Source of the DNA: Candidatus Nanohaloarchaea archaeon | GTDB lineage: Archaea; Nanohalarchaeota; Nanosalinia; Nanosalinales; Nanosalinaceae | DNA: 64,000 bases | NCBI GenBank assembly: GCA_042218075.1 | Contig: JBDGRK010000018.1 | Coordinates: 32,001-96,000, forward strand | Direction of reading: 5' to 3' | Shown: positions 5,331 through 28,561 of the stretch, one piece after another | Numbering within the stretch: position 1 is the first letter of the stretch | How the letters are laid out: the number at the start of each line of letters is the position of its first letter | Notes under the pieces: model-generated | Database searches by the model: none | Seen by the model: only the letters and a program-made list of their open reading frames with translations | What the model was told of the DNA's origin: nothing | Made by a program: the position numbers and the translations under genes

Positions 5331-5444
5331 TGGGTTCGCCCGGATTCGAACCGGGGATCTTCGCCTTGTAAGGGCGACGTCATGATCCGGATCAGAACTC
5401 GTCTCTTAGACTGATACCCGGATAACCAACTAGACCACGAACCC
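5331..5444 (-). tRNA. tRNA-Val(TAC) with 40-nt D-loop intron (5382-5421)
   Basis: GGGTTCG/CGAACCC acceptor, TCGCC-CTTACAA-GGCGA anticodon arm; splice motif GGTT-AT^C...GATC-AT^G. Confidence 0.92.
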
Positions 5445-6419
5445 AAAGTTTGGTATACTAAAGTCGTCTTCTACTGAATTTTTAATGATTTCCGACCCCG
5501 CTGCTGGTAACCTATCATTTTCCATGTAGAAGATATACCTTTTAATATTACGAGAATTACTGCTTCCTATTTCTCGATAGAAATCTCGTATATTTTCATA
5601 ACCATAAGCCTGAAACTTATTATTTGAGAGTTTTAATGGTAAATCCAATATTTTAATTGCTTCAATCAAGAATTCACGGATCGAAGAATTCATTGATGTT
5701 ATATCAGCCATAATTTCTGAGTTAGGATGCGAGTATATTCCTCCATCGGTATCAAACAACCCTCTAACAACACTGCCAACCAGCCCGCTATTATAAAGAA
5801 CTTCAGGTATTCTAAATTCGGCCTCCTTCTTTTCACCCTTTACAAATCCGGAATTAATCAAAAATTCTGCAACTTTACGGCTATTAATTATAAGTCTAAC
5901 CACATTTTCACCTTCACTAAAATAGAATTTAGGCTCGATATCAAAAATTGAGCGGCATAGATCGGCTAAATACCCTAAATATTCTTCATCCAGGTCTGAA
6001 TTACCCGAAATACAGACTGTATTCATATCGGAATATATACAACCATCCCCTAAAAGAGCACCATAGAACTCCGCCAATTCTGGACTCCATGTTTCAGGTA
6101 TCTCTCCTCTTCTATTTGATATTTTCCCTCCCTTTCTCTGCCCATGCCAAGTTTGTTTGAACTCTTTTTCTACATTTTCCCCAGTTATTTTTTCTAATCT
6201 TCTAACAATAGATAGCGGTAAAGAATCAGATTCTTTCCTCCAAGTTCTCCTTACTGTATATTCGGATACACCAAATTCTTCTCCAAACTCTTTCCAAGTA
6301 CATTCTTTTGCTTTCTTGGCTTCATTAATTAGACTTCTAATTTGTTTTTGGTTATCAAAAAAGACTCTTTGTTCTCTAAAACGGCCATCAGTCGTTCTAT
6401 TCGCTTTTACATCATTCAT
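5430..6419 (-). mobile_element. Free-standing LAGLIDADG homing endonuclease-like gene with N-terminal HTH
   Basis: Motifs LAEFYGALLGDGCI and VVRGLFDTDGGI; visibly AT-rich; stop codon lies inside tRNA-Val. Confidence 0.85.
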
Positions 6420-6455
6420 AAAGTAAACTAATGTTTAAAAATATTATATTTCTTG

Positions 6456-8309
6456 CTAGATCTCTTCTCCCAGGATAGGGTCGAAAACCTTCTCTCCCCT
6501 CGAATAATAGGGATAGTATACAATCCTTTCCGGCTCGATTCCCAGATCCTCCGGTTGCATCTCGATCTCTATCATTTTATCTTTCTCAACTTTCTCAGAA
6601 TCTATACTCCTGTCAAATACCGTTTCAACCGGTTCGTTATCCTCGTCGATCCTCTGCTTCTGCTTCAGCGAATCAAAAACTGACGTCACCTTAGAAATAT
6701 TTAAGTCGAGCTCATCCATCACTCCGCTCTTATCTCTTCCTTCCGATAATAATTCCAGTACCTGTTGCTCCGTTCCCTCCGCTCTTTCGACCTCCGCCTT
6801 TTTCCCTCCCTTTACCGCATCGTAGAGAATTCTCTTTTTACCTCCATCAACCTCGTAAAGTGGATAATAGGCTTGATCGTATTTCTCACCCTTCCTTGAT
6901 TCCAGCTCCTCCAGCGATATCCCGGGTTCGAACACGAACACATCCTTCCTCTCAGAGTAGTTCTCCGCTGTCTGTGTCTCACCTCCATGTTTCGACCTCC
7001 TGATTCTAACGTCGGTCATTACAGGGTACTCGTTGCCTAGAAGAAAACAGACTCCGGGAGGCAGGGACTTGATCATTGATTCAACCTCGGATGTCACGCC
7101 CTCGAAAGATTTGGAAATCGCCTTAAGGTCGTTCGGGTTGGTAACGCGGAGTATAAACTGGGTGTTGCACTGGCTGAGCACGTTTTTATCAATTCTCGCC
7201 GGCCTCTGGGAGATGACTCCAAGGCCGAGGCCGAACTTCCTTCCCTCCGAGGCAATCTTCCTCAGTATCTTGTTGCTCAGTGCCTGTTCAAAACCTTTCT
7301 CAGGCGCAAAGTTGTGGGCTTCCTCAATCACCATCAAGAAGGGGGGTATCCTATCTTTCTTCCTCAGCTCAAACATCCTCTTCGCCAGGAGGAACATCGC
7401 CATCTCCGCGGTTTCCGGCTCCACCGCCTTCAGGTTTACGACCGTGGCCTCCCCCGGCTCCAGCAGATCCTGAAGTTCGATCGCATCTTCGGAGAAAAGC
7501 CCGGAGTTCTCCATCTGCTCCATCGAATTAAGCAGGTTCCACTTGGCCGTCGATTCTTCATGGGAAACCGCCTCCATGATATCCTTCAGGCTGTAATCCT
7601 CATCCTTCTCTCTCAACCTCTTCAGCGAGTTGTATAGAACCCCCATCTGTGAATTCGTCAGGGATTCCGGTATTACTTCCAGGAGCTCCTTTTTCCCCAT
7701 GTTCTTGGAAGAAAAAGACAGTTTCAGAGCCTCTCTATTGATATCAGTGTTTGGCGAGTACTCTGTGATTTCATATCCCTTCGGATCCTCGCTATCCGGG
7801 TTAGGTTCCCTCAGCGATGAATACTCTCCATGCGGATCGATCACCATCACCGGGAGATCCTTCTCCAGCATTTCTTCGATCAAGACCCCTGTGAGATACG
7901 ATTTCCCGGCTCCGGTCTGTGCCAGCACTGCAAAGTGCTTGTAGAAATCCTCCCTGTTGACATGTATGTCAATTTCTCCGTTGGTCTCCAGGTGTCCGAT
8001 CCTCAGGCCTTCATCTTCCAGCCCAAGCGTATCTGAAATCAGTTCCTGGTCAGCCGCGTAGACTATCGATCCCGGCTCAATTACTCGCCTCGGAGCCTTT
8101 GTCAGTCCCTTGTCCCTATAACCGATTATATTGGCATCCGCGAGGGTTTCGCCGTCCGGCTTCTTGGTCACCTGCTCGACCTGGGCCAGTATCCAGTTAT
8201 CGTCGCTCTTCACCGAGACAAAGTCGAACTTCTTCACCTCTTCAGTCGCCCTGAAGGAGAAACTCGACGTATCTACATCTCCCTCAATCGTTCCCAGCTG
8301 CATAGGCAA
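6456..8309 (-). CDS. HerA/DUF87-family ATPase
   Basis: HAS-barrel-like N-terminus, Walker A AQTGAGKS, IDPHGEY, IEEAHNF, EGRKFG, ISQRP. Confidence 0.88.
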   Translation of the reverse strand: MPMQLGTIEGDVDTSSFSFRATEEVKKFDFVSVKSDDNWILAQVEQVTKKPDGETLADANIIGYRDKGLTKAPRRVIEPGSIVYAADQELISDTLGLEDEGLRIGHLETNGEIDIHVNREDFYKHFAVLAQTGAGKSYLTGVLIEEMLEKDLPVMVIDPHGEYSSLREPNPDSEDPKGYEITEYSPNTDINREALKLSFSSKNMGKKELLEVIPESLTNSQMGVLYNSLKRLREKDEDYSLKDIMEAVSHEESTAKWNLLNSMEQMENSGLFSEDAIELQDLLEPGEATVVNLKAVEPETAEMAMFLLAKRMFELRKKDRIPPFLMVIEEAHNFAPEKGFEQALSNKILRKIASEGRKFGLGLGVISQRPARIDKNVLSQCNTQFILRVTNPNDLKAISKSFEGVTSEVESMIKSLPPGVCFLLGNEYPVMTDVRIRRSKHGGETQTAENYSERKDVFVFEPGISLEELESRKGEKYDQAYYPLYEVDGGKKRILYDAVKGGKKAEVERAEGTEQQVLELLSEGRDKSGVMDELDLNISKVTSVFDSLKQKQRIDEDNEPVETVFDRSIDSEKVEKDKMIEIEMQPEDLGIEPERIVYYPYYSRGEKVFDPILGEEI

Positions 8310-8365
8310 AGATTTCCGGTGGAAGATTCATAAATTAAGCTGCAGGATTGCGATAATTTAAGAAG

Positions 8366-8827
8366 GTGAAGCACGACAGGAACTTCATGGAGGCGGAAAT
8401 CAGCGAGGGTCTGAGGCACAACCTGATCTATCTGGGTATAATTCTGGTAATGATAGCAGGATTCGCCGCTACCAAGAACCTTGTAACTCCGGAAGAACCG
8501 GTGAAGGTCGGTTACACTGAAGTCCACACTGACTGTGTAGGGATGGATGCGGGCTTCTGCCTGGGGATGCAGAAGAGGGATCACGTAACCTACAACTACG
8601 ATAATTATACAGAAGTTAAGCCAGGGACTGAAAACTTTTACAGGCGGGTAGAGTCGGAACTGATGATCAGAGCCTACAATACCTGCGATCACTCCATGTC
8701 GGGAATGGAATGGACCTCGGAAGTAAGCTACAGGAACAGGACAGCATCAGAGTGGATGCAGAGCCCTAATGTGCAGCTGCTTCCATGCGAGAAGACTTTC
8801 TACAGGAATCTGACAGCCTCGAGATGA
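8366..8827 (+). CDS. Membrane-anchored hypothetical protein
   Basis: One TM helix and several Cys; start uncertain. Confidence 0.55.
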   Translation: MKHDRNFMEAEISEGLRHNLIYLGIILVMIAGFAATKNLVTPEEPVKVGYTEVHTDCVGMDAGFCLGMQKRDHVTYNYDNYTEVKPGTENFYRRVESELMIRAYNTCDHSMSGMEWTSEVSYRNRTASEWMQSPNVQLLPCEKTFYRNLTASR

Positions 8828-8873
8828 TTTCTTTAAAAATTTTCCTGCTTCATAAGCTTTCAAGGTGCAAAAA

Positions 8874-9365
8874 ATGAACGAGGGAGAATACGTGGAGAGA
8901 ACATTTGTCGCTATCAAACCGGACGCTGTGAAGAGAGGATTGATTGGAGAAATCGTATCAGTGTTAGAGGACGCCGGCTTCAAGATAATGGGTATGAAGA
9001 TGGTCCAGGCTACAGACCAACTTCTGGAGCAGCACTACGCTGAACACGTTGACAAGCCTTTCTACGAGGGACTCGCTGAATACATGAAACAGGGGCCGAT
9101 AGTTGCGATGGTTCTTGAAGGCGTTCACGCACAGGAGAACCTCAGGAAGATCGTGGGAGATACTTCCAACCGGGAGGCGCATCCCGCCACCATCAGGGGA
9201 AGGTTCGCCCACATGTCGATGGAGCACGCTGACGCGGAGGGGAAGAAATACAAGAATATTATACACGCTGCTGAATCTGGAGAAGCGGAGCGCGAGATAG
9301 AGATCTGGTTCGAGGAAGAAGAACTACACGACTACCAAACGGTTCACGAGACAGAAGTACAGTAA
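8874..9365 (+). CDS. ndk: Nucleoside diphosphate kinase
   Basis: ERTFVAIKPDAVKRGLIGEI and NIIHA motifs. Confidence 0.95.
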   Translation: MNEGEYVERTFVAIKPDAVKRGLIGEIVSVLEDAGFKIMGMKMVQATDQLLEQHYAEHVDKPFYEGLAEYMKQGPIVAMVLEGVHAQENLRKIVGDTSNREAHPATIRGRFAHMSMEHADAEGKKYKNIIHAAESGEAEREIEIWFEEEELHDYQTVHETEVQ

Positions 9366-9370
9366 ATAAA

Positions 9371-9481
9371 AAGCGACGGATGATGAGCCCTGCGGGCAAC
9401 TGCAGCGGCAGTTGGCAGCGCTGACCGGCCATGCCGGTCATATGTGAACTGGCAGCAGTTCTTTGAGTGCTGACGTCGCTT
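9371..9481 (+). ncRNA. Candidate structured RNA closed by a box C/D (K-turn) motif
   Basis: 8-bp terminal stem AAGCGACG/CGTCGCTT, ATGATGA at 9380-9386, CTGA at 9470-9473, four internal hairpins. Confidence 0.5.
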
Positions 9482-9494
9482 AAAATCTGTCTTC

Positions 9495-9787
9495 TTAATC
9501 CCGATCTATCTCCTTACCCACTATTTCTTCCTCAAGATCAATCGCTGTCTGTATGAGATAGTCTCCAAGTTCACGTCCTCTTCCCTCCGGTAAATCTCTC
9601 TCGCTGAAGAGACGTTCAAACTCCTCTTTAACCTCTTCCTCCCTTTCCCTATCGATAATATCCATGTCGTTCTGATGCTTGTACTCCGCTACTTTGACCA
9701 CCAGCTCCATCTTTCATCCACGATATCGACGATTTCTTCGTTAAGTTCGTCAAGATCCTCCCTTATCTGATCCAGGTCTAAACTCAT
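9495..9787 (-). pseudogene. Chorismate mutase-like gene split by a 1-nt frameshift
   Basis: MSLDLDQIREDLDELNEEIVDIVDER (9787-9710) continues as MELVVKVAEYK...IIDREREEEV in the -1 frame. Confidence 0.65.
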
Positions 9788-9799
9788 TTTTCTCCTCCT

Positions 9800-11461
9800 C
9801 TAGTCTTTCTTTTCGGTTTTCAGATAATTCTCCAATTTATACACATTTAGTTCGAATCCGGAAACCGGCTGTTCAAGTTCCCAGTCTTCAAGCACTTCCC
9901 CGGATAATTCACCTATTATACCTATCCTCTCTCCTCTACATCTGATCTCGCCCTGTCTTCCCTGCCTGAAACAGTCTTTCCCAACATCTCTTACCTCCAG
10001 CTGAATACCTAAATCCCTTTCCAGAACCTGTAGAACTTCTCTAGCGTCTGTGAAATCTGCATCTCCATGAGATTCGACGTAGGCAAGTTTCCTACAGTTT
10101 CTCACACCGGTGTATGATGATTCTGAGGGTATTGAGACATCATCAACCTCAAAGAACTTCTGCGGGTAACTTCTATGCTTATTTCTCTTCAGCACATTCA
10201 TCATGCTTGGTAACAGCCAGTTCCTCACAACAGTGTAATCCTCGGTTAATGCATTGCTCATCTCGGCAACCTCTTTTTCTTCGACATTCATTCTCTTGAA
10301 AAGTTTCTCTTTGTTCGAGAGTATGTAAGTATTTGTCTCAAGTGCACCTGTTCCCTGAAGTACATCCCTCAAAATATTGCTGAAATCGCTTAATTGGTTT
10401 TCTTCAGCAGTCTGATCAACCTCAGGCAGTTCAGGCTGAATATTATCATACCTGTGCGCGATAACTATATCCTCTATCAGGTCATACTGATGCATTATGT
10501 CGGTCCTGTAAGCCGGTACCTCAACCTTTATCTCATCACCCGCTTCCGCACCGAACTTCATCTGCTTCAGTCTATCCATCATCTCCGATCTGGAAAGTTC
10601 AAGCCCTGAAATTCTATTGGCATATTCGGGATCGATCTTCCATTCCCCTGGGGAAAGCTCCGGCATTTTTTCACCATCTAATTCAACTGACTCGATAACT
10701 CCTCCCCGCTCTTCCAGAGCAGTGACCAGAATGTTAAGCGCCTTTACAACCGATTTCCTATCATTCCCGGTAACATCTATGAAAATCTCACTCGTCCCTG
10801 TATCTACTTCGGTCAGCTGGTTGTTTATTATGGGGGGAAAACTAAGCACCTTGCCCTCCGAATCCTCGATAATTGGATATCTATCATTATCCTCCAGTAT
10901 CCAGGAGTACTTTATCCCTTTCTCGTGCTCGCTCAGGATTTCACCCAGCTGCATATGGCTGTCGTATTCCAGCGGTTTGAAGCTGACCTTTTCGGGCTCG
11001 ACCGCCCTGTAGGTGAAAGGAGGTTCTAAAACTGAGAGATCGTGAAGCCCAATAGCGAGTTTCTCCCTTCTTCTTCCTATCGTCTCGTGCAGCTTTTCCT
11101 GCATCTGGATGAGTCCGTTTATCATCCTGTCTGAAAGTTCTAAATTCCTGACAACAGCCCCGGCTATAACCGGCCTTACTTCATCTACCGATTCATGGAT
11201 ATCTACAGATATATCGCCTCTTTTCACATTGTAACCCTCTATACCTGTATCAACGCCAAAGAATCCTCTGTAGGCTCTTGCCAGACCTTCAACCGATAGA
11301 AGATCTGGCCTGTTTGGATATACTTCTACATCCCATTTTTCACCTTCTACATGGTTCCAGTGGACTCCCAGAAAAGAAGCCTCCTCGTCCAGTCGCTGTT
11401 CCTCTATTTTTTGTCCAACCAGTTCATCGAATTCTCTCTTGTTGATCTTGATGTGCGCCAT
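9800..11461 (-). CDS. pheT: Phenylalanyl-tRNA synthetase beta subunit
   Basis: PNRPDLLSVEGLARA, QEKLH, VLSFPPIIN, VPAYRTDIMH. Confidence 0.96.
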   Translation of the reverse strand: MAHIKINKREFDELVGQKIEEQRLDEEASFLGVHWNHVEGEKWDVEVYPNRPDLLSVEGLARAYRGFFGVDTGIEGYNVKRGDISVDIHESVDEVRPVIAGAVVRNLELSDRMINGLIQMQEKLHETIGRRREKLAIGLHDLSVLEPPFTYRAVEPEKVSFKPLEYDSHMQLGEILSEHEKGIKYSWILEDNDRYPIIEDSEGKVLSFPPIINNQLTEVDTGTSEIFIDVTGNDRKSVVKALNILVTALEERGGVIESVELDGEKMPELSPGEWKIDPEYANRISGLELSRSEMMDRLKQMKFGAEAGDEIKVEVPAYRTDIMHQYDLIEDIVIAHRYDNIQPELPEVDQTAEENQLSDFSNILRDVLQGTGALETNTYILSNKEKLFKRMNVEEKEVAEMSNALTEDYTVVRNWLLPSMMNVLKRNKHRSYPQKFFEVDDVSIPSESSYTGVRNCRKLAYVESHGDADFTDAREVLQVLERDLGIQLEVRDVGKDCFRQGRQGEIRCRGERIGIIGELSGEVLEDWELEQPVSGFELNVYKLENYLKTEKKD

Positions 11462-11472
11462 TCACAATCACC

Positions 11473-12852
11473 TCAGAGATTCGGCCTCCAGACCGACGTG
11501 TTTTCCAGTAGTTCGATATCATTCCTGTAGAGTTCCCTGACATCTTCAAGACCGGCTGATCTCATCGCAATCCTTGGAATTCCAAGTCCCCAAGCCAATA
11601 CCGTAGCCTCGAATCCTAACATGGGTTTTACCACCTCAGGCCGGAACATGCCTGATCCGCCGAGACCTATCCATTCCTTTTCCTGGGAATCCCAGACCTG
11701 GACTTCCACGCTCATCTCGGTGTAGGGGTAATAGCTGGGGATAAGCCTGAATTGATCGTATCCCATCTTTTCAAAGAACTGGCTCAAATAGGCCTTAAGA
11801 TTCACGAAGTTTAGATCTTCTCCCACCACAATACCATCCGACTGGTAGAACTCAGCATTATGATAACGATCAATAGTTTCATTCCTGAAAACTCTTGAAG
11901 TAGTGAAGAACTTGGCCGGAAGATCTTTCTTCTCAAGTTCCGCAAGTTTCTGCGCCGAGACACCTGTAGTATGAGTCCTTAAAACATTTCTTGAAGCCTC
12001 CTTCTCCGACCAATCATATTCCCATCCAGAGCTTCCGGTCTCCCAGCCGTTCTCATGAGTTTGCTTTACTCTTTCAACGTAGTCTCCCTGCTCTGACAGA
12101 TCTGATTTCTCAGGCTTTTTCATAAAGAATGTGTCCTGCAACTCTCTTGCCGGGTGATCCTGCGGTATGTAGAGCGAATCAAAGCACCAGAAGCCCGGCT
12201 GAATGAAGGATCCTTCCATTTCTTTGAATCCCATTTCCCTCCATGTTTTGTTTGCATATTCTATTATCTGCTTGTAGAAGTGCTTCTTTCCCGTCCTGGG
12301 CGTCTTAGTCCTCGCCTCAACGTTGAAATCTTCTTCTATCTCATCCGGTTCTATCTCGTCTCCTCTCTCCGAAAGCAGAAGCTCTCTCCTGGTGGCTTTC
12401 TCAACCTCAACTAGCCCTCTTTCCTGAATCTCTTCATCAAATTCTCCTTCCTCCAGCCTCTGCCGGGTAACATCTTCAGCATCTTCACCTGGTTCAGTCA
12501 GGTAAACTTCTCCTTGGTCGACTTCCACCCAATTCTTCTCACGGGCCTTCCCGAGCGCAACGTCCAGTTCGAGATTTTCAAGCTCCGAGAGTTGTTTCTC
12601 GCCTCTGCTGACCCTCTCCACCAGCCTGTACTCCGGCGACCCTTCTTCAACTATCTCCTCTCCCTCACCTGTTAGTTCGTAGCCGATAACCTCTTCTTCC
12701 TCGACTTCTACAAGATCTTTCTCCTCCAGTTCTAAAGCCGCCCTGTTAACCATGCTCTGGTCGTATCCCATTGCTTCAAGGTCCTCTACCGTAAGTTCGG
12801 AGTGATCCTTGAGCTCTTCCAGGATCTGGATGGCCTGGGAGGAAAGCCTCAT
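11473..12852 (-). CDS. pheS: Phenylalanyl-tRNA synthetase alpha subunit
   Basis: PQDHPARELQDTF, LRTHTT, FRNETID, GMFRPE; ATG 12852 follows SD GGAGGTG. Confidence 0.96.
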   Translation of the reverse strand: MRLSSQAIQILEELKDHSELTVEDLEAMGYDQSMVNRAALELEEKDLVEVEEEEVIGYELTGEGEEIVEEGSPEYRLVERVSRGEKQLSELENLELDVALGKAREKNWVEVDQGEVYLTEPGEDAEDVTRQRLEEGEFDEEIQERGLVEVEKATRRELLLSERGDEIEPDEIEEDFNVEARTKTPRTGKKHFYKQIIEYANKTWREMGFKEMEGSFIQPGFWCFDSLYIPQDHPARELQDTFFMKKPEKSDLSEQGDYVERVKQTHENGWETGSSGWEYDWSEKEASRNVLRTHTTGVSAQKLAELEKKDLPAKFFTTSRVFRNETIDRYHNAEFYQSDGIVVGEDLNFVNLKAYLSQFFEKMGYDQFRLIPSYYPYTEMSVEVQVWDSQEKEWIGLGGSGMFRPEVVKPMLGFEATVLAWGLGIPRIAMRSAGLEDVRELYRNDIELLENTSVWRPNL

Positions 12853-12972
12853 GCGTGCACACCTCCGGAGTGAAGCTTTAATAACCCGGCCTGTATCCAA
12901 AAATCTATAGCTGAGTCCGAATAGAAATTTTCAATACTCGAAAAAACGTCCACCCTTCAAAGACAGACTCAT
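12849..12972 (-). promoter_or_regulatory. pheS leader: uORF MSLSLKGGRFFEY* with candidate +1 shift site CGT-TTT-TTC
   Basis: uORF 12972-12931; +1 frame open 30 codons to a TGA overlapping the pheS ATG; TATA-like CTTAAG at 12995-13000. Confidence 0.7.
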
Positions 12973-13010
12973 GAAATACTTATGAAAACAAAAACTTAAG
13001 TAGATTGGCT

Positions 13011-13772: not shown

Positions 13773-13850
13773 GTACAGGTTATAAATTGCTAATTTAAAG
13801 GAGTTCAGACCAGAGTATTTTTATGTTTTAAATCCAATACATTATAACAC

Positions 13851-14673: not shown

Positions 14674-14674
14674 T

Positions 14675-18705: not shown

Positions 18706-18803
18706 AATCAAATCACGTAACCAAACATAGTCACAAAAACCTTAAAAAGGTTCTCAGATGGTAAAAGAAAAATTGGTTATAGCTGAGTCTATTTCAGCGT
18801 AAA

Positions 18804-18951: not shown

Positions 18952-18981
18952 ATTAAATATTCCAAGAGAAAGCTTAAAAAT

Positions 18982-19743: not shown

Positions 19744-19767
19744 AGCTTAAGAATACTAAGACGGCAT

Positions 19768-20940
19768 TTAAGAATTCTTCTCGAGTGCCTGGATCGCTGG
19801 AAGATCCTCTCCGCTCATGAATCTCACGAAAGCTCCACCCGCAATCGAAACGTGTGAGAACTCGTCCAGTTCGTGATCGAAGCGGTGCACAAGCGAGGAA
19901 GTGTGGCCGCCTCCCAGCACGGTGAAGCAATCTGTCTCCGCTATGGCTTCAACTATTTTCCTCGTTCCTTCAGGGTGTTCCTCGAATGCTCCCATCGGAC
20001 CCTTCATCAGGATATCATCCGCCTCTCTTATCTCTGATACAAATTTTTTTGTAGTTCCCTCGCCGATGTCCCAGGTCATCTCTCCCCCGGGCACTTCCCC
20101 AACCTCGTAATCGCCAGAATCAGTCCTTACATCTGCGGGAAGAACAATCTTCTCGCCATGTTTATCCAGTATCTGTCTCAACTCTTCCTCCCTTGAGGAA
20201 AAGCTCTGCTCCTCTATCCACTCGCTCTTCTCACCCAGATCGTGCCCCTTGATCTTCAGCGCCAGTTCTCCGGGGATCCCGCCCAGAAGCACCTTATCCA
20301 CGTCTTCAATCATTTCGTTCATAATCCCTATCAGATCTGAAGGTTTTTCTCCCCCTAAAACCATCAATCCGTCGTGGAATTCCTCACTGACTCTGGAGCA
20401 GTTCTCATACTCCTTCTGCATTATGGGTCCGGCACAGGATTCCAGCCTTTCCGTAAACCCGACCATCGAGCCGTGGGATCTATGTGCGGCGGAGAAGGCA
20501 TCATCGACATAGATATCGAAGTACTGGGATATCTTCTCAACAAAAAAGTCGTGAGCGTGGACCTGTGCGGGAGCGTTCTGGAGCTCTTCGGACAGGAACC
20601 GTATGTTCTCCAGCATCGCCACCTCACCATTATCCATCCTCGCAACTTTCTCCCCGAGTTCGGGACCGAAGAAACTTGGTACGAACTCAACTTCTCTTTC
20701 CATGGATTCTTCGAGTATTTCCGAATGTTTCTCCAAGGACAGGAAATCCTTCCTTGCCGGCCTCCCCTGGTGCGCGACTATCACCACTTTCGCATCTTTT
20801 CCACTCAGTTCCTCGATAGTTTCCAGGTATCTCTCGAACCTCACAGTCTTCCTGGGTTCGCCATCCTCTATAGGAAGGTTCAGGTCCGTCCTGAGAAGTA
20901 CTCTCCTTCCCTCTAACTCCACATCTTCAAAAGTCCGCAT
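19768..20940 (-). CDS. pgk: Phosphoglycerate kinase
   Basis: RTDLNLP, HQGRP, LENIRF, DAFSAAHRSH, GGGHT. Confidence 0.95.
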   Translation of the reverse strand: MRTFEDVELEGRRVLLRTDLNLPIEDGEPRKTVRFERYLETIEELSGKDAKVVIVAHQGRPARKDFLSLEKHSEILEESMEREVEFVPSFFGPELGEKVARMDNGEVAMLENIRFLSEELQNAPAQVHAHDFFVEKISQYFDIYVDDAFSAAHRSHGSMVGFTERLESCAGPIMQKEYENCSRVSEEFHDGLMVLGGEKPSDLIGIMNEMIEDVDKVLLGGIPGELALKIKGHDLGEKSEWIEEQSFSSREEELRQILDKHGEKIVLPADVRTDSGDYEVGEVPGGEMTWDIGEGTTKKFVSEIREADDILMKGPMGAFEEHPEGTRKIVEAIAETDCFTVLGGGHTSSLVHRFDHELDEFSHVSIAGGAFVRFMSGEDLPAIQALEKNS

Positions 20941-20998
20941 CAGTATTACGTTGTATTACCTCGATCGTTTTTAAGGCTTAACCGGGAAAAAACCAGAT

Positions 20999-21454
20999 AT
21001 GACAGAAGAACTGAAAATCAGGGTAGAGGACGAAAGTCGGGCCAAAAACAGGATTAAAGAGGTTGGAGCCGATCTAGAGAAAAAAGTTTCGGTGAAAGAC
21101 ACTTACTTCCAGGGACAGGGAGAAGACGAACTCAAAATAACGGAAACTGGTGAAGGAGAGTTTCTAAGGAAGTATGAGAAAAAAGATTCCGGCTTTCAGC
21201 AGGTAAAAAATGATGAAGTTGAAAATCCTGATGAAAAGAAACAGCAACTGGAGCAGCAATTCGGCATAAAGACAGTACAGCAGAAAGAGATAAGCTACTA
21301 TTCACTGGGAGACAAGACCATAATTCTGAACAGGATACGGAATACAGGAGTCTTCCTAATTCAGGGAGAAAACGTTAGGAAAGAGTTTCTGGAAGAAGAA
21401 CTTGGTTTTGAGAACTCTGAGTATATTGAAGCACCGTTCAGCGATCTTGAATGA
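20999..21454 (+). CDS. CYTH-domain protein
   Basis: N-terminal EELKIRV and DTYF motifs. Confidence 0.7.
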   Translation: MTEELKIRVEDESRAKNRIKEVGADLEKKVSVKDTYFQGQGEDELKITETGEGEFLRKYEKKDSGFQQVKNDEVENPDEKKQQLEQQFGIKTVQQKEISYYSLGDKTIILNRIRNTGVFLIQGENVRKEFLEEELGFENSEYIEAPFSDLE

Positions 21455-21733
21455 CTATGCCTCAACTTTCCTAGAATTCTCAATCTCCTCATCCATAATT
21501 TTGCCAAGATAGTTCACGATCTCTGAATCCGGGTTCAGCCTGTAGAGGGTTGTTCCAACGTACTTCTTTTTCTCCATAACTATGCGGTTTTGTTCCAGTT
21601 TATCCCATATTTTGTAAAGTGTGGAGCGTGAAATCTCTGCTTTATCCGCCAGTTCTGTTTTGGAGTATCCTACGTTCGGATGATCGAGTAAAACATCCAA
21701 AACTTTTTCTATCCTGTCATCAATCAGAGTCAT
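21455..21733 (-). CDS. Winged-helix DNA-binding protein
   Basis: YSKTELADKAEISRSTLY HTH. Confidence 0.75.
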   Translation of the reverse strand: MTLIDDRIEKVLDVLLDHPNVGYSKTELADKAEISRSTLYKIWDKLEQNRIVMEKKKYVGTTLYRLNPDSEIVNYLGKIMDEEIENSRKVEA

Positions 21734-21814
21734 ATAAGGTAGGAAGAATCAAGATATATAATTGTTTTGATTTTCCAACACTGAACGTCCAGAAATATAC
21801 ACACAAGGGAAAAT

Positions 21815-22093
21815 ATGGACTCAGAGGAAAAGAAAATAGCCATTCTGGCGAAACTTGCGAGGAAGAAAAAGTTAGGCATGAACTACATCCCTAAAGAAAA
21901 GGCTTTCAGCAAGATTCCATCTCACGACCGCGGAAATCTTGACAGTATTCTCAAAGAAATGCGTAGAAACGGACTGATCGAATTTCACAAGAACCGGAAA
22001 TGTATTTCCATCAATCCCGGAGCAGTGCCTGAAGTTATCGAACCAATTGGCGAGGAAGTTCCTGATTATATCATCGAGAGACTGGAGAGCTAG
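21815..22093 (+). CDS. Small hypothetical protein, possibly winged-helix
   Basis: 92-aa ORF divergent from the wHTH gene. Confidence 0.55.
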   Translation: MDSEEKKIAILAKLARKKKLGMNYIPKEKAFSKIPSHDRGNLDSILKEMRRNGLIEFHKNRKCISINPGAVPEVIEPIGEEVPDYIIERLES

Positions 22094-22135
22094 TCAAACC
22101 ATATTTAACTTCTTCCTCGTAAAACTTCAACACTA

Positions 22136-22283
22136 ATGAAAGGTGAATATTTTGGATTGTCGCAGGTTCCATCTGGAAGCTGCGTTGAGAAGCAGAATTC
22201 CTGCTTCGAATCGGCGATCAAGTAAAGTTTCTATAAAACCAGCTGTAGCTATAAAAACTTCTTCTCCGAGTGATTCTGCATGA
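22136..22283 (+). promoter_or_regulatory. glyS leader: 29-aa uORF MKGEYFG... with candidate +1 shift site TAT-TTT-GGA
   Basis: uORF 22136-22225; +1 frame open 42 codons to TGA 22281-22283 overlapping glyS ATG 22280; TATA-like ATTTAA at 22103-22108. Confidence 0.68.
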
Positions 22284-23989
22284 GGCTAGGCGAGAAAGTC
22301 ACCGAGCTTTCGAAGAGAAGAGGCTTCTATTTCCATACCTCCGGGGCTTATGGTGGAGTCGGAGGCTTCCAGACTTTCGGTCCAGAGGGAGCAGAACTGA
22401 AGAGAAATATTGAAGACTCCTGGAGAGATAAGTTCTCGCGCGAGCTTGGAAACAGGGAGATTGAAGCTCCGACAATCATGCAGGAAGACGTTTTCCGGGC
22501 TTCTGGCCACCTGGAGACTTTCGATGATATGATCATCGAGTGCCCGGAATGCGGAGAGTCCATCAGGGCAGACCACCTGGTCGAAGACAACACCGGTATA
22601 GAGGAAGCGGAGAGCCTTTCGACGGAGAGAATAGAAGAGCTGATCTCCGGGCACGACATCAAGTGCGGCTCATGCGGCAATGAACTCTCGGAAATCGAGG
22701 TGGAAGACTTCAACCTGATGTTCGAGACTTCTATCGGTCCGGGAGATTCACAGCCCGGATACCTGAGGCCAGAGACAGCGCAGGGCATCTTCGTTGAGTT
22801 TCCGCAGCTGAAAGAATACGAGAGAAACCAGCTCCCGTTTGGTATAACCCAGATAGGTAAGGCGTACAGGAACGAGATATCTCCGAGGAAAGGGCTTGTC
22901 AGGGTCAGGGAGCTGACTCAGGCAGAACTGGAAAAGTTCATCGATCCGGTGGAGGATGAACCGCCGCTTGAGGAGGTAGATGACGTGGAGCTTAAGCTCT
23001 ATCCGCGTGAAAGACAGGGAGAAGGAGAACAGGATTACCTCAGGCTCACCGTTAGAGAGGCAGTCGAAGAGGAAGTTGTTGAGTCTGAGTGGATAGCCTA
23101 CTACCTCGCTCACGCCAAGCTCTGGTTCGAGTCGATTGGAGTCGACATGGAAAGGTTCAGGTTCCGCCAGCACCTGGAGGACGAGCTCTCCCACTACTCG
23201 ACGGACTGCTGGGACGCTGAATCACAGGTGGATGGAGACTGGATAGAGATCGCGGGATTCTCATACAGGGGGTGCTACGACCTTTCAAAGCACGAAAAGT
23301 ATTCCCAAGATGACTTCAAAGTCTTCAAAGAATATGAAGAGCCGAGGGTCGAGAAAAGAGCGAAGGTGGATCCCGACATGGGCTGGCTTGGTCCAACTTA
23401 CGGAGACCACGCTTCAGAGATAAGTGAAGAGCTAGAGAGGATGGTGGAGGAAGAGCCAGAAGTCTTCGAGAGGAATGAAGAGCTGAGGCTGGAGATTGAC
23501 GGAAAGATGTTTGAAGTTCCGGTTGAGAAGACAGGCTTCAAGATAGAAGAAGTTAAGAAGAACGGCGAGCACATTCTGCCACACGTCGCGGAGCCTTCCT
23601 TCGGCATCGACAGGGCAGTCTACACTGTGCTTGGCCACGCCTACGACGAGGACGAGGTTGATGGAGAAGAACGGAAGGTGCTCAGGATGTCGAATGATGT
23701 TGTGCCGACGCAAGTAGCTGTCTTTCCACTAATGGACAAGCCGGAGCTGAGTGAAAAAGCCAGAGAGGTCGAGCAAAAGCTGAGGAATGCTGGATTCTCT
23801 GTGAAGTACGATGAGTCGGGAAGCATCGGAAAGCGCTACAGGAGGCAGGACGAGATCGGGACTCCTTTCTGCATCACCGTTGACTACGAAACCCTTGAAG
23901 AGGAGCCGGAGACAGTCACTGTAAGGTACAGGGATTCGACAGAGCAGGAAAGAATAGACATCAGTAAACTCAAAGAATACCTGGAGTAA
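22280..23989 (+). CDS. glyS: Glycyl-tRNA synthetase (alpha2 type)
   Basis: YLRPETAQGIF, YRNEISPR, EPSFGIDR, RYRRQDEIGTP. Confidence 0.96.
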   Translation: MRLGEKVTELSKRRGFYFHTSGAYGGVGGFQTFGPEGAELKRNIEDSWRDKFSRELGNREIEAPTIMQEDVFRASGHLETFDDMIIECPECGESIRADHLVEDNTGIEEAESLSTERIEELISGHDIKCGSCGNELSEIEVEDFNLMFETSIGPGDSQPGYLRPETAQGIFVEFPQLKEYERNQLPFGITQIGKAYRNEISPRKGLVRVRELTQAELEKFIDPVEDEPPLEEVDDVELKLYPRERQGEGEQDYLRLTVREAVEEEVVESEWIAYYLAHAKLWFESIGVDMERFRFRQHLEDELSHYSTDCWDAESQVDGDWIEIAGFSYRGCYDLSKHEKYSQDDFKVFKEYEEPRVEKRAKVDPDMGWLGPTYGDHASEISEELERMVEEEPEVFERNEELRLEIDGKMFEVPVEKTGFKIEEVKKNGEHILPHVAEPSFGIDRAVYTVLGHAYDEDEVDGEERKVLRMSNDVVPTQVAVFPLMDKPELSEKAREVEQKLRNAGFSVKYDESGSIGKRYRRQDEIGTPFCITVDYETLEEEPETVTVRYRDSTEQERIDISKLKEYLE

Positions 23990-24016
23990 AGGCTCTGAAT
24001 ACTTTTTCCCTTTCTT

Positions 24017-24775
24017 ATGAAGCCAGAAAACATCGCTCCCTTCTTGAAGGAAATCCTGAGATCGGGACGTGAACTTGAAGGAGGCCTGTATTCGAACCCA
24101 GAACTCTACGATGCAGTATATACTCTGGATGCGGATTACCCGATCCTGGAAAGTAAAGTCAGGCAGAATATTGAGAAGGGTTCTTCTATTCTTTACATCG
24201 GCTGTGGTACGGGAAACCTGATAAGGAGGCTGGAGAACGACTACGAGATATTAGGAATTGACAGGAGCAGTCAGATGACAGATTACGCTTCAGAGAAAGT
24301 TGACTCTGAGATCAGAAATAAGAGTTCTTTCGAGATGGATTTTCATGAAGAATTCGACGCTGTGATACAGTTCGGTCTTTCTCTCAACTATATACTTTCG
24401 GAAAGAGAGATGGAGAGTCACTTCAGAAAGATAGGGGAGGCACTGAAGGAAGGAGGAGTATATCTGGCGGATTTCTGGACTTTGCTTGATAAGGGATCAG
24501 GATGGAAGACAGAATACGAGCTGGAAGGAGTTGATCTAGTTGTAGGATACAGCTTTGAAGAACTTGAGCATTGCATGGAGATGGAGATCAAGTTCAGGAT
24601 TTCCTCCGATTTAGGTTCAGAGAAATTTAACAACACCCACAGGATAAGGAGCTGGGAGGTCGCGGAAATCAAGCAAATTCTGGAGCTTGGTGGGCTTGAG
24701 GCCGTTGGTTCCGAAAAACTGTACGATCACCATAACTTCAGACTCGTAGAGGCAACCAGAGATAAAACAGGTTGA
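24017..24775 (+). CDS. Class I SAM-dependent methyltransferase
   Basis: ILYIGCGTG, GID, LKEGGVYLAD. Confidence 0.85.
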   Translation: MKPENIAPFLKEILRSGRELEGGLYSNPELYDAVYTLDADYPILESKVRQNIEKGSSILYIGCGTGNLIRRLENDYEILGIDRSSQMTDYASEKVDSEIRNKSSFEMDFHEEFDAVIQFGLSLNYILSEREMESHFRKIGEALKEGGVYLADFWTLLDKGSGWKTEYELEGVDLVVGYSFEELEHCMEMEIKFRISSDLGSEKFNNTHRIRSWEVAEIKQILELGGLEAVGSEKLYDHHNFRLVEATRDKTG

Positions 24776-24801
24776 TAAAGAAGGGAGTCGTAGATTCTGG
24801 T

Positions 24802-25761
24802 ATGGCTGAATGCTCAAAATGCGGGAAGGAATCGATGAGCTTCACCTGCAAGTACTGCGGTGAAAAATACTGCTCGGAGCACCGTCTTCCCGAGAAGCAT
24901 GATTGCGATGGGCTGGAGGAAAAGCTGGAGGAGGAAAAAGAAAAAGAGGAAGACCAGTGGTTCCAGGAGAATAAGGTGAAGAATCCCGCTCCCTCCCGGA
25001 CGGAAAGAGAGTTCAGGAAGCCCTCTATCAAGCGTGATCTCAAGGAAATAATCACGAGTAATGTAACACTGTCTATAATCGGCTTCACTACTCTTGTTTT
25101 CGCGGTCCAGTCGATAATAAGCTCTTCACCGGGTTCACAGGCCTACAGTGCATTCTACAGTCTGCTGATTCTTGACCCGGCACTTTCGAGTGTCCTCGCG
25201 AAACCATGGACGCTTCTGACTGTAATGATACTCCACGGAGGGCTCTTCCACCTCTTCGCCAACATGGTAACATTCTACTTCTTCGGTTCGCCGATTGAAA
25301 GACTGGTGGGAGGTAAAAAGCTGCTGAAGTTTTACGCCGGAGCTGGACTTGCAGCCAGCCTTGGATTCGTGTTTTTCAGAAACCTGCTTTTCCTTCTACA
25401 CGGTGAGGCACTGAGATGTATTGTACCGGGAGCCTGCGGAGGCATGGGCGTTCTGGGTCCGGCAGTAGGAGCTTCAGGTGCGGTGGTCGCGTGCTTTGCA
25501 GCGGTCTCAAGGCTTTATCCGGACGCAGAGGTGCTGCTCTACTTCATCATTCCACTGAAGATCAGGACAGCTTTCCTGCTTTTCGCCGGTTTCGAGGGAA
25601 TAAACATGCTTGTGATGCTTCTCGGTTACACTGTTCCGATTGTAGGCGGTCTTGCTTTCTCAGCACATTTCACTGGTCTGATAGTCGGACTCTGGTTCGG
25701 AGAGAGGATAAAGAAGAAGGTGAATACAAGGAGTTCAAGGTTCGAGCTACTGGCGAGATAA
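24802..25761 (+). CDS. Rhomboid intramembrane protease with AN1 zinc finger
   Basis: CKYCGEKYCSEHRLPEKHDC; HLFANM, GASG, AHFTG. Confidence 0.9.
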   Translation: MAECSKCGKESMSFTCKYCGEKYCSEHRLPEKHDCDGLEEKLEEEKEKEEDQWFQENKVKNPAPSRTEREFRKPSIKRDLKEIITSNVTLSIIGFTTLVFAVQSIISSSPGSQAYSAFYSLLILDPALSSVLAKPWTLLTVMILHGGLFHLFANMVTFYFFGSPIERLVGGKKLLKFYAGAGLAASLGFVFFRNLLFLLHGEALRCIVPGACGGMGVLGPAVGASGAVVACFAAVSRLYPDAEVLLYFIIPLKIRTAFLLFAGFEGINMLVMLLGYTVPIVGGLAFSAHFTGLIVGLWFGERIKKKVNTRSSRFELLAR

Positions 25762-25791
25762 ACTTAATAGATTTCATGTCACTGAATATCT

Positions 25792-26238
25792 GTGGGAAAA
25801 AGATTCGAAAATGCCGCTGCCGATGGCATCGAGAGTGTCGAAAACCCGGAGATAGAAGGAGTAAACGCAAATATAAGCTCTGGTTATAATATTCTGGATG
25901 CTTATATTTCGATCTCCACTTTACTCAATGAGTTTAATTCTCCGACAATGGTAGTTGAGGCTAAAAATAATACATGCTACGAAGCGGGAGATAGAGCAAT
26001 CGCAGAAATAAAGGGATATGAAGATTGTGGATTGTTCAATCTTATTTTCAAAAATTCAGAGGAACTTCCAGGTCTTTACAGTGGTGAAGAGCCTGAAGCA
26101 GTGGTTGAAGATCGAGATGGAGATATACAAAGCGGCCAGGTAGTATATTACCAGATTTTACCATATGAAATGGTTGAAAATGATCCAGTTCAAATCACAG
26201 GCGAAAATCCAATAGTCCAGAGATTTTTCTCGGATTAG
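25792..26238 (+). CDS. Hypothetical protein
   Basis: AT-rich acidic ORF filling the gap; start uncertain. Confidence 0.45.
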   Translation: MGKRFENAAADGIESVENPEIEGVNANISSGYNILDAYISISTLLNEFNSPTMVVEAKNNTCYEAGDRAIAEIKGYEDCGLFNLIFKNSEELPGLYSGEEPEAVVEDRDGDIQSGQVVYYQILPYEMVENDPVQITGENPIVQRFFSD

Positions 26239-26780
26239 GGAGTTACCCTTTCCACCTCGTAATAAGTCACCTGCCTCTCCGCGTCGACCACCGCCCAGAG
26301 CATCGTTGCTCGAATATTGTGTGCGAGCCTCACCGCCCTTGACATCTCTTGGAAGCTGGTGTTGTAATCCTCAGGTACTGCATGCACAATCCACTTGGTA
26401 TGCTCGTGGTCTTCCTTCGGCCCGTCCTTGTAAGGATTGACTCCCCTTGGATAGACCCTGAAGTGGGCTCCGAACTTGAAACCTGTCTTCACAATAAAAC
26501 CTCTCTCCCTGAGATCAGAGTAGGCAGCGTACTTGTGGTCGAACTCGTCATCCTCGCTCGAAAAACGGTGGTAAATCTCCTCCCTCTCCAGTTTTTCACC
26601 ATCCTCAACTATCTCAAGCTCCTCCCTATCGACGAGGTGGAGCGCTTCAACGAACGAAAGCTCCAGGTATTCCTCATCGTCAATAAACTTCCCGTAGTAA
26701 ACCTCATCGTGTATCTTCTCCGCTTCTTCCTCGTCCCAGACCTTGACCTTGGTGTCAGAAATTTTGCCTTCTGCAGTCAT
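26235..26780 (-). CDS. endA: tRNA splicing endonuclease (single catalytic unit, 181 aa)
   Basis: LELSFVEALHL, YSDLRERGFIVKTGFKFGAHFRVY; TATA-like TTTAAAA about 25 nt upstream of ATG 26780. Confidence 0.93.
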   Translation of the reverse strand: MTAEGKISDTKVKVWDEEEAEKIHDEVYYGKFIDDEEYLELSFVEALHLVDREELEIVEDGEKLEREEIYHRFSSEDDEFDHKYAAYSDLRERGFIVKTGFKFGAHFRVYPRGVNPYKDGPKEDHEHTKWIVHAVPEDYNTSFQEMSRAVRLAHNIRATMLWAVVDAERQVTYYEVERVTP

Positions 26781-26811
26781 AGCAGAAAAAACACAGTGAA
26801 CTTTTAAATTG

Positions 26812-27509
26812 TCAGAACTCTCCGAGCCCGCTCTGCTCAGACTCATCGATCAGGTCCTGTGAGGTACTCCAGCTCAACCTTGCCTCCGGCGGGAGTTCGC
26901 CTTTCTCTTTCAGGTATTTCTTCAGGAATTCTCTCGTCGGCTTGTCATGCGGGTAGCCCGACTTGAAGTCGTAGCCGTACTTTTTCTGAAGTTTTTCTAC
27001 ATGCTCCTCCCTTGCCGACTTTGCCACTATGGAAGCTGCTGATACTATATCATATTCTTCATCTGCCCCGTGCTCCGCCACAAACTTCATATCCTTGAAC
27101 TTAACCGGCAACTGGTCTTTCAGCTTCCGGATGAATCGGTCTCCATCCGGCTCCGGCAGATCCACAAATACTTCATCCGCATCCGACCTCCTTATGACGT
27201 CAACAAAACCTTTAACCTCGATCTCGTTCAGGTTCATCACCTGGCTGAGCTCATCTATCTCCGAGGCCTCTATCTCTTTCAGGAAAGTCCTTCCAAGACC
27301 ATCAAGCTGCTCTCTCAGTCTTTCCCTTTTCGAATCAGAAAGCTTCTTCGAATCTTTAACTCCAAGTTCGTCCAGTTCGTCCATTCGGGCCTCATCAACC
27401 ATGAAGCCTCCAATAAACATCGAGCCGATGACGGGGCCTTTAGGCCAAACAAGACCGGAGATCCCGTTTATCTGCCTGCCTCGTCAACGCCCATGATCTT
27501 TTTAGTCAC
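26812..27509 (-). CDS. rnhB: Ribonuclease HII, interrupted by a 32-nt intron
   Basis: Exon 1 27509-27472 plus exon 2 27439-26812 gives 221 aa MTKKIMGVDEAGRGPVIGSM...VKDSKKLS...VSAASIVAK...SGYPHD. Confidence 0.9.
27440..27471 (-). other. Bulge-helix-bulge intron in rnhB mRNA
   Basis: AGGC-AG^A...GCCT-AA^A: 4-bp helix, two 3-nt bulges, inner stem TAAACGGGA/TCTTGTTTG; removal restores frame and DEAGRGP. Confidence 0.85.
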
Positions 27510-28561
27510 AAAACGATCACCCTTTTATCAGTCTCAACAGTTTCCCATTCGTGATTCTGTTTTTTTATAAGCCCTAGTTCCTCCAGACGATATAGGTTTT
27601 TGTACGCAGATTTCTTTCTGACAGAGAAATATTCAGCTATTTCACTCACTTTAAGCGGATTATCTCTAAGGAGATCGAGGTAATCTGACTTAACTTCAGA
27701 AATGATTATCGCATTTTGATCTTCTCTTATCCAGTATGTAGATCCCTCAGTTTTGTAGTTCATCGCTTTTCCTTCTTCCTTTAGAAGCATTAAGACATCG
27801 CATAACCGGGCCTGAGATCTATCAAATTTTTCAGCCAACTCTCTGGTTTGCCATGGCGTATCCAGAAGTTCGAGGACTTCTTCCTTTAATTGACCTTTCT
27901 GATAGTGTGTCTCCTGAAAGCTCTCATAAATTCTCCAAAACTTATTTCTCTTTCTTAGATGTAGTTTAACAAGATCTAAATCAGCAAATATGTCCCAGTT
28001 TCTCTTCCTAGTTATTACGTAGGATCTGCTCTCGGCTTTGAAATTATAGTCCAATTCAAAATGATCTAACATAGTTTCTAAGAACTGGTTCTGCGCTCCT
28101 TGAGATATCCTTAATCTCCGACTATTTCTGGCTCCTTCATAGATGCTTCCCTCACCAGCAAAGAAACCCTGAAGAATATATTGATACAGTTCAGAATCAG
28201 ATTTTCCCTTTTCAACCGTATTCTTCCACTTTTTAACAAAATCAGTTGAAGCAAGCCGCAGCAGATAATATGTCTGAGTAGCTCTCTCATCAAAGTAAAA
28301 TTTAGTTTTAGCTTTTTCCAGAGAGTTGTAATCAGATCCTTCATTAGGTCTATAGACATACAGTCTGAATCTATCAAGACCGGAAAAATCCCGAATAGTT
28401 CTATAGAATAGCTCAACTAGTTCAAAGCAATTATTTGTGAAAGTAACCTCTCTTTCAGTTTTTGTATCTCCTTCAGCTAACCGAAGTCCTATACATCTAG
28501 CTGAATCTTTTTTCATGCCTGAAAATTCTTTAAACAGCTTAAAAAGACTATTTAATATCAT
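27506..28561 (-). mobile_element. Free-standing LAGLIDADG-like gene with C-terminal wHTH domains
   Basis: CIGLRLAEGD and ILQGFFAGEGSI motifs; AT-rich; TGA overlaps rnhB GTG. Confidence 0.75.

Follow-up and report, generated by a model that had tools for sequence, protein, structure and literature searches.

How introns came to be acquired at odd positions in archaeal tRNA genes and in a few protein genes is an old question, and we know of no means by which an enzyme-spliced bulge-helix-bulge (BHB) intron could move unless an endonuclease gene lies inside it. The question is raised by two loci in a 64,000-nt stretch of DNA from the phylum Nanohaloarchaeota, positions 32001-96000 of contig C10 in a 1.10-Mb, 40-contig genome (G000); this whole stretch is called the window below. 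In both loci, a LAGLIDADG open reading frame (ORF) overlaps the next gene on the same strand, and that gene contains a tiny intron without an ORF. ORF1 runs into the gene of tRNA-Val(UAC), and ORF2 runs into rnhB, the gene of RNase HII. The original prediction had reported this layout as occurring twice and had proposed that endonuclease and intron are partners; the layout itself was confirmed for tRNA-Val (intron of 40 nt) and for rnhB (32 nt). Each of the two cases belongs to a widespread family with a single host gene of its own, and collaborative homing is the best reading of them, one that we hold with about as much belief as doubt.

Anatomy of the two loci and nature of the proteins

The features of the two loci are as follows.

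5331..5444, minus strand: tRNA-Val(UAC), 114 nt including the intron, mature 74 nt; 5' exon from direct reading of the sequence
5382..5421, minus strand: D-arm intron of tRNA-Val, 40 nt, tRNA positions 22/23; from the fold and from comparison with uninterrupted alleles
5430..6419, minus strand: ORF1, 329 aa, LAGLIDADG endonuclease gene with two motifs and a helix-turn-helix region at the N-terminus; outside any intron
26235..26846, minus strand: EndA, tRNA-splicing endonuclease, 203 aa; Pfam tRNA_int_endo and tRNA_int_endo_N
26812..27439, minus strand: rnhB exon 2 (RNase HII); Pfam RNase_HII, E 8.6e-37, from profile position 15
27440..27471, minus strand: BHB intron of rnhB, 32 nt, splitting the codon AGA of the DEAGRGP motif between AG and A
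27472..27509, minus strand: rnhB exon 1, GTG start, 13 codons ending ..DEAGR; MTKKIMGVDEAG followed by two bases of the split Arg codon
27515..27522, minus strand: Shine-Dalgarno-like GGGTGATC, within the last ORF2 codons, 6-13 nt before the rnhB GTG
27506..28561, minus strand: ORF2, 351 aa from the first ATG, double-motif LAGLIDADG with two C-terminal winged helices; GC content 0.365; outside any intron

At the rnhB locus, the TGA stop codon of ORF2 (27506-27508) overlaps the GTG start codon of rnhB (27507-27509), and this GTG opens MTKKIMGVDEAGR. The insert that follows exon 1 begins with a TAA stop codon and shifts the frame, and GPVIGSMFIGG.. resumes in exon 2. When folded as RNA, the region forms an outer helix (UGACG/CGUCA plus GGC/GCC), a 3' bulge of 4 nt (AAAG), a central helix (AGGC/GCCU), a 5' bulge (AGA), and an 11-bp inner hairpin. 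A cut after the second bulge base would remove 27440-27471 and rebuild GGC AGA GGC CCC, with both the DEAGRGP motif and the reading frame restored. The overlap of ORF2 with the next gene is explained by a candidate ribosome-binding site for rnhB in the last ORF2 codons, together with the stop/start overlap. The ORF2-type ending GAGGTGAT..TTGTGA/TTATGA recurs in many family members, and the conserved ending GAGGTGATTGTnTTGTGA holds a Shine-Dalgarno-like GGTGAT that is complementary to the organism's own 16S 3' end, GGATCACCTCC. The GTGA stop/start overlap and the Shine-Dalgarno-like site suggest that translation of rnhB may be coupled to that of ORF2. Directly 3' of rnhB, with an overlap of 35 nt, lies the gene of EndA, the one match to this enzyme in the whole genome; EndA is the enzyme expected to remove the introns of both tRNA-Val and rnhB. 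If rnhB and EndA are co-transcribed, the EndA message itself bears a substrate intron. Adjacency of rnhB and EndA was also seen in G045 and G066.

At the tRNA locus, the TAG stop codon of ORF1 (5430-5432) lies within tRNA-Val(UAC), and the two genes overlap by 15 nt. The first 15 bases of the tRNA gene, GGGUUCGUGGUCUAG, encode the end of ORF1 (last five codons ..FGFVV and TAG). Because a 40-nt insert follows ..GGUUAU, ARAGORN (5331-5400) and Rfam (5331-5389) see the 3' part of the tRNA alone. In its intron mode, ARAGORN missed the D-arm intron, lost the tRNA-Met of the window, and accepted several splice registers; the register was therefore set by comparison with uninterrupted alleles. The uninterrupted gene of relatives reads GGUUAUGACGUCGCC, which fixes the intron as 5382-5421, and removal of the intron yields GGUUAU^GACG, identical to the uninterrupted alleles, in a product of 74 nt. 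The BHB core consists of a 4-bp helix (GGUU/GAUC), 3-nt bulges (AUC and AUG), and an inner hairpin; a single parse obeys the BHB rule, and a cut after the second bulge base in this parse yields exactly the uninterrupted-allele product. In nine relatives the helix is GGUU/GACU, i.e., G-C and G-U pairs are exchanged. The outer helix is weak or absent, so that what is present amounts to a BHB core short of the complete hBHBh' motif. The tRNA-Val gene of G066 has two introns, one in the D-arm and one after position 37. In genomes of this kind, both rnhB and tRNA-Val are mis-called by standard tools, which is a warning for annotation; at 26812-27509, the called rnhB ORF begins 19 codons late, at an internal ATG.

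ORF1 and ORF2 look like active free-standing LAGLIDADG nucleases, as judged from conserved residues and from AlphaFold2 (AF2) models. ORF1 passes the Pfam LAGLIDADG_3 cut-off (28.3 bits; cut-off 22.5), and in its motifs LLGDGC and LFDTDGG the residues G124 D125 G126 and D223 T224 D225 G226 are invariant in 17 homologues. Its AF2 model has a mean confidence (pLDDT) of 85.1, with the LAGLIDADG helices ending at residues 125 and 225, and Foldseek matched it to the TliVMA intein endonuclease (1e-10), I-Tsp061I (TM-score on the target 0.73), I-SceI, and I-DmoI. The start of ORF2 is probably the ATG at 28516, and one source annotates 336 aa. ORF2 scored below the LAGLIDADG_3 cut-off (16.9 bits), with TrmB/HTH winged-helix matches at residues 281-343; PF14528 is present in the precomputed annotations of several close homologues. 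It is by its motifs and predicted fold that ORF2 is recognised as a LAGLIDADG protein. Its motifs are GLRLAEGD and GFFAGEGS; across 17 homologues, E137 never varies and E30 hardly does. Homologues of ORF2 (47 at E <= 0.001) align over the full length, with conserved motifs GLWLAEGD and LQGFFAGEG. In its AF2 model (pLDDT 90.5), long helices end at residues 30 and 137, and Foldseek matches include E-DreI and I-DmoI (E about 1e-5, TM-score on the target 0.59-0.64), WhiA (3hyi, rank 2), and the bI3 maturase. The fold of a monomeric double-motif LAGLIDADG protein (alpha-beta-beta-alpha-beta-beta-alpha, twice) was found in both models. The original prediction had named catalytically dead DNA-binding regulators as the case that would speak against it; the acidic residues of both motifs are kept, and by their sequences the proteins do not fall into that class.

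Co-occurrence of endonuclease genes and introns

The distribution of ORF2 and of the rnhB intron was examined in 70 searchable genomes of the phylum, 67 of which could be classified for rnhB. The 5' ends of 52 rnhB loci were read directly and the rest were taken from the match start, with G055 and G066 read separately; G013 and G006 (contig ends) and G037 (no rnhB match) were left unclassified. ORF2 was found in five of the 70 genomes, which belong to five genera and three families: G000, G066 (63% identity), G038 (56%), G045 (56%, one TAG), and G028, in which an internal deletion removes about residues 72-171. All five copies end in ..V(I/L)VL, with the rnhB start at an overlapping GTGA or ATGA. 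Among the 67 classified genomes, ORF2 and intron occur together in five, ORF2 alone in none, the intron alone in one (G055), and neither in 61. The independent distribution of endonucleases and introns that would have told against the original prediction was thus not borne out for rnhB. The six inserts of the phylum, all after DEAGR, are 29-33 nt long and fold alike, with unrelated inner-hairpin sequences, and in each case both exons are open and conserved. Moreover, the central helix covaries: AGGC/GCCU is replaced by GGGC/GCCC in G028, where GCA has become GCG in the exon and, in step with it, GCCU has become GCCC in the intron.

A scan across phyla, with one genome per species, recovered 72 loci of the ORF2 family, under labels that include Woese-, Pace-, Nano-, Aenigm-, Micr-, Iain-, and Altiarchaeota, Nitrososphaerota, and Thermoplasmatota. 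In 71 of these, rnhB lies directly 3' of ORF2, and in the remaining one (L176) the contig ends before that position. By tblastn, rnhB was placed 38-130 nt past the ORF2 stop on the same strand in 70 loci, and direct reading revealed the same layout in L154. An insert at the same rnhB codon is present in 59 of the 71 loci, and rnhB is uninterrupted in the other 12. The inserts are hairpins of about 21-52 nt (range from the 37 strictly parsing loci) with BHB geometry; they are therefore too short for a group I ribozyme and were not classed as group I introns. When the 58 insert-bearing loci then in hand were scanned (L154 was found later), a strict hBHBh' motif together with in-frame restoration at the DEAGR codon was obtained in 37, or in 46 under relaxed rules, as compared with 0-3 of 58 over 20 rounds for shuffled inserts. 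Covariation was also seen between the central helix and the third bases of the codons for Ala and Gly, as in UGGG/CCCA (L131) and, by eye, CGGU/GCCG (L145). In a 30-locus sample of the order that contains the intronless case G074, ORF2 was found in G074 alone, and all 29 ORF2-less rnhB genes were uninterrupted. Taken together, the recurrence of the layout in other genomes and the excess of BHB geometry over shuffled inserts bore out the view that these arrangements exceed chance.

For the tRNA-Val pairing, orthologues of ORF1 were found in four of the 70 genomes: they are intact in G000 and G004, frameshifted in G066, and carry stops in G067. All four copies lie directly 5' of a tRNA-Val bearing the D-arm intron. 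In G000 and G004, HerA and PTH2 are separated by about 1.2 kb, vs 214-551 nt in 21 other loci, which are clean empty sites. In an alignment-based metagenome scan, 80 loci of the ORF1 family were recovered, of which the nearest ones (about 20) are all found immediately 5' to a tRNA-Val(UAC); a metagenome scan with the ORF1 sequence alone found no relative. By reading, about half of these nearest relatives extend into the tRNA with the ending ..G(P/L/F)(V/M)V*, and in these cases there is an insert in the D-arm. More distant family members precede other tRNAs. A same-strand tRNA start within -25 to +45 nt of the stop was found in 50 of the 75 loci with enough downstream DNA, by a crude T-arm/acceptor test for which L193 is an obvious miss. 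In the typical arrangement, the stop follows the first base of the tRNA by 12 or 7 nt, and the endonuclease gene thus takes its stop codon from tRNA positions 13-15 (U13-A14-G15) or 8-10.

The endonuclease genes also bear signs of selfish elements. All three endonuclease genes of the window are AT-rich (GC content of ORF1 0.355, vs 0.472 for the window and 0.50 for the adjacent HerA gene), and presence or absence of endonuclease genes varies within genera. Decayed copies that keep the intron were found in G045 (ORF2 with TAG), G028 (ORF2 with deletion), G066 (ORF1 with frameshift), and G067 (ORF1 with stops), and the ORF2 frame is interrupted with the insert kept in about nine of the 63 family loci read. 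Broken endonuclease copies with a retained intron fit the life cycle of homing endonucleases. In addition, rnhB of G066 is 76% identical to that of its genus-mate G051 in the first quarter but 98% and 92% identical in the middle quarters, and the blastn alignment of the two starts only about 130 nt into the G066 gene. This 5' divergence suggests a co-conversion tract, without deciding the matter.

The third LAGLIDADG gene of the window stands beside a tRNA gene on the opposite strand.

28703..28777, plus strand: tRNA-Met(CAU), intronless; between ORF2 and the broken third endonuclease gene
28789..29328, minus strand: third LAGLIDADG gene, one in-frame stop (TAA) at 29026-29028; PF14528 match; GC content 0.319

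The two genes lie tail to tail, 12 nt apart. The description of a broken third LAGLIDADG gene flanking an intronless tRNA was therefore accurate. The gene has the motifs ARLCGDG and AFIRDEG; over 187 aa it shares 51% identity with an intact homologue adjoining the tRNA-Met of G066. The G066 tRNA-Met next to that intact 187-aa gene is interrupted; in the window, the tRNA-Met is intronless and the endonuclease broken. Elsewhere in the genome, 43 Pfam LAGLIDADG_3 matches were counted (e.g., 48265-48471 within the window), most of them in open frames of 900-2300 aa and therefore inteins, which makes the genome unusually intein-rich; ARAGORN called 23 tRNA genes in the genome, many with introns. 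At G000:C28:10370-10777, a 188-aa LAGLIDADG ORF is followed by the 16S rRNA 3' end (GGATCACCTCC), which looks like a classical endonuclease-bearing rRNA intron. At G000:C23:3625-3960, a broken LAGLIDADG gene ends at a distance of 3 nt from a tRNA 3' end on the opposite strand. ARAGORN missed this tRNA, which by eye is tRNA-Gly(GCC), interrupted by an intron after position 37. At G000:C36:62574-62792, a free-standing 506-aa ORF with two motifs (AGLAAGDGG and RGLFDADGA) has no adjoining tRNA or rnhB.

Homing and its alternatives

Under collaborative homing, each of the two free-standing LAGLIDADG families has a neighbouring BHB mini-intron that splits the target of its nuclease. The endonuclease genes are placed exactly between the promoter of the host gene and its first bases, and the intron lies 9-35 nt beyond the endonuclease stop, in the most conserved stretch of the host gene. 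The nuclease would cut alleles that lack the intron, at the point of intron insertion or close to it, and repair templated by the allele with the endonuclease would copy the endonuclease gene and the intron jointly. By splitting the DNA recognition sequence, the intron would protect its carrier, and splicing of the RNA by the host tRNA-splicing endonuclease would restore the product. The endonuclease might later decay and leave the intron behind. Target-site immunity would, if this is true, be a concrete benefit of the intron, and the layout lets nuclease targets be guessed.

The partnership that had been proposed thus gained support from nuclease-like proteins, from linkage, and from decayed copies, and a number of observations weigh against it. 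For rnhB, G055 has a 30-nt intron with no ORF2 remnant upstream even at E up to 10. The 12 intronless ORF2 loci keep both ORF2 motifs intact; therefore, the intron is not required for persistence of the endonuclease-bearing allele. In a Pacearchaeota-like order, the intronless ORF2-bearing allele is DDSGRGP, the same as in ORF2-less relatives, and no compensating change of the target was found. The ORF2 phylogeny, a quick tree, tracks host taxonomy and hence leaves room for a long history of vertical descent in which copies were lost. At least 3-5 changes are required to account for its 11 intronless rows, which fall inside clades that have the intron; the intron is therefore old in its association with ORF2, and several losses of it left ORF2 in place.

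A comparison of intronless ORF2-bearing alleles with ORF2-less relatives at the presumed target was set aside. It gave no signal of a target change, as DDSGRGP and DDAGRGP are typical of their lineages; a contrast in the Ser codon (AGY in four of five ORF2-bearing vs TCN in three of three ORF2-less alleles) involved too few alleles to use. Among close relatives with a 22-nt intron, the intronless ORF2 locus L170 has the rnhB motif DEARRGPIISVM instead of DEAGRGPIIGPL; either an intron lost imprecisely or an rnhB in decay could account for this.

The case for a partnership is weaker at tRNA-Val than at rnhB. Co-occurrence held in one direction, in that ORF1 is accompanied by the intron in four of four genomes, and failed in the other: among 63 genomes examined for the tRNA-Val intron, six of the 10 that bear it (G001, G002, G003, G019, G047, and G051) have no ORF1. 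In these six, the HerA-PTH2 spacing of 242-319 nt leaves no room for ORF1, and no remnant was present. The tRNA-Val intron either outlives ORF1 or predates it. The four ORF1 cases fall in two genera and therefore represent few independent events. Also among the nearest ORF1 relatives in metagenomes, roughly the other half have their stop 6-30 nt upstream of an uninterrupted tRNA (by reading).

The main rival, which we consider rather unlikely, is that the intron is a passenger. A mobile endonuclease would recognise a different sequence in the vicinity, for instance the point of its own insertion at the 5' end of the host gene, and the intron, having arisen once in an endonuclease-bearing allele or predating the endonuclease, would ride in the co-conversion tract and confer no immunity. 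With only 9-35 nt between the intron and the endonuclease gene, any homing event would co-convert the intron. The 12 intronless ORF2 loci with intact motifs fit a passenger, as do the six genomes that keep the tRNA-Val intron without ORF1 and the nesting of intronless states in intron-bearing ORF2 clades, since the intron can evidently go while the endonuclease stays. However, loci from many phyla have the insert at one and the same codon, within the rnhB motif that is conserved best and thus in the kind of target that is typical of homing endonucleases, whereas the start region of rnhB, the alternative target, is not conserved among relatives. Moreover, the same design is found independently at a tRNA.

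Less likely again, and in our judgement improbable, is domestication, in which ORF2 and perhaps ORF1 would serve as a WhiA-like or maturase-like DNA- or RNA-binding factor that regulates rnhB or aids processing of its transcript. The ranks of WhiA and the bI3 maturase among the fold matches of ORF2 and its two winged helices accord with this idea, as do its length and many residues conserved across phyla, a tree that tracks host taxonomy, the constant placement, and the apparent translational coupling. Against these stand the acidic residues retained in both motifs, the sporadic occurrence of ORF2 (five of 70 phylum genomes and one of 30 loci of another order), the interruption of about nine of 63 copies, and the AT-rich, foreign composition. 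Splicing, in particular, cannot depend on ORF2, given that the intron is kept where ORF2 is broken or gone (G045, G028, and G055).

That the interruptions are mere damage (an rnhB pseudogene with a junk insert, a disrupted tRNA-Val, or assembly errors) might be supposed from the failure of ARAGORN and Rfam to call the full tRNA and from a search of sequencing runs over 26200-28600 that listed no RNA run, but this is very improbable in view of BHB geometry well above shuffled controls, open and conserved rnhB exons in six phylum genomes, occupation of the same site in independent assemblies of many phyla, two independent DNA runs that match the window over this stretch, and a single rnhB in 66 of 69 genomes. 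Joints from 27439 to 28658 and 28703 in contigs of four DNA runs come from related organisms whose intervening sequence is not known, and nothing was drawn from them.

Comparison with known systems

Collaborative homing by a free-standing endonuclease and an ORF-less intron is described for phages in the review PMC3984707. As in the phage systems, a free-standing endonuclease gene here adjoins a gene with an ORF-less intron, and the two may be co-inherited. The phage enzymes have the intron insertion site as their target, so that alleles with the intron escape; for the present pairs such a target is proposed. Unlike the phage introns, which are self-splicing group I introns, the present ones are BHB introns of about 21-52 nt that would be cut by a host protein. 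The hosts, moreover, are cellular archaea, and the enzyme is of the LAGLIDADG type. The cyanophage pair of psbA and F-CphI is an example of collaborative homing.

I-DmoI and I-Tsp061I, from archaeal rRNA BHB introns, share with ORF1 and ORF2 the enzyme fold and motif type, and their introns are of the same intron and splicing class. Their genes lie inside the intron; those described here precede the host gene, and the tiny intron within that gene has no ORF. The host genes also differ, being one protein-coding gene and one tRNA as compared with rRNA. ORF2 resembles the bacterial transcription factor WhiA in that a DNA-binding helix-turn-helix comes after the LAGLIDADG domain. WhiA, the product of a housekeeping gene, is not known to have the catalytic acidic residues. 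ORF2, by contrast, retains acidic residues and is sporadic (five of 70 genomes), and it was not classed as a WhiA-like regulator.

BHB introns in a protein-coding gene are known from crenarchaeal cbf5, according to the abstract of PMC2738675. By that abstract, cbf5 likewise has a short BHB intron in its mRNA that needs the tRNA-splicing endonuclease and is gained and lost among relatives. The present introns differ in their gene, rnhB, in their lineages (DPANN, Nitrososphaerota, and others), and in having a dedicated neighbouring endonuclease, a partner of which the cbf5 abstract makes no mention. In the literature searched, mostly outside subscription journals, we found no published BHB intron in rnhB and no endonuclease genes beside BHB mini-introns. 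With rnhB, protein-gene BHB introns are extended well beyond crenarchaeal cbf5, and the rnhB-tied and tRNA-tied families together offer a testable route for the gain, spread, and persistence of introns. A broader proposal, possible though on the doubtful side, is that endonucleases beside conserved genes are a general engine that creates and spreads archaeal BHB introns. Each non-canonical mini-intron in a tRNA or protein gene would go back to an insert that could be spliced out, that interrupted the target of a free-standing LAGLIDADG nuclease encoded next to it, and that was carried along with this nuclease; the many orphan introns of DPANN and other archaea would be fossils left after decay of the nuclease.

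Finally, protective disruption of archaeal tRNA genes was proposed by Randau and Soll, as cited in PMC4390854. By that account, an interrupted tRNA gene is the destroyed target of a site-specific mobile element, as we propose here. The attackers in that account are integrating plasmids and viruses, whereas here the attacker would be an adjacent homing endonuclease that also carries the intron along. If endonuclease and intron do form such a composite unit, this would supply a mechanism for the protection of interrupted tRNA genes from mobile elements.

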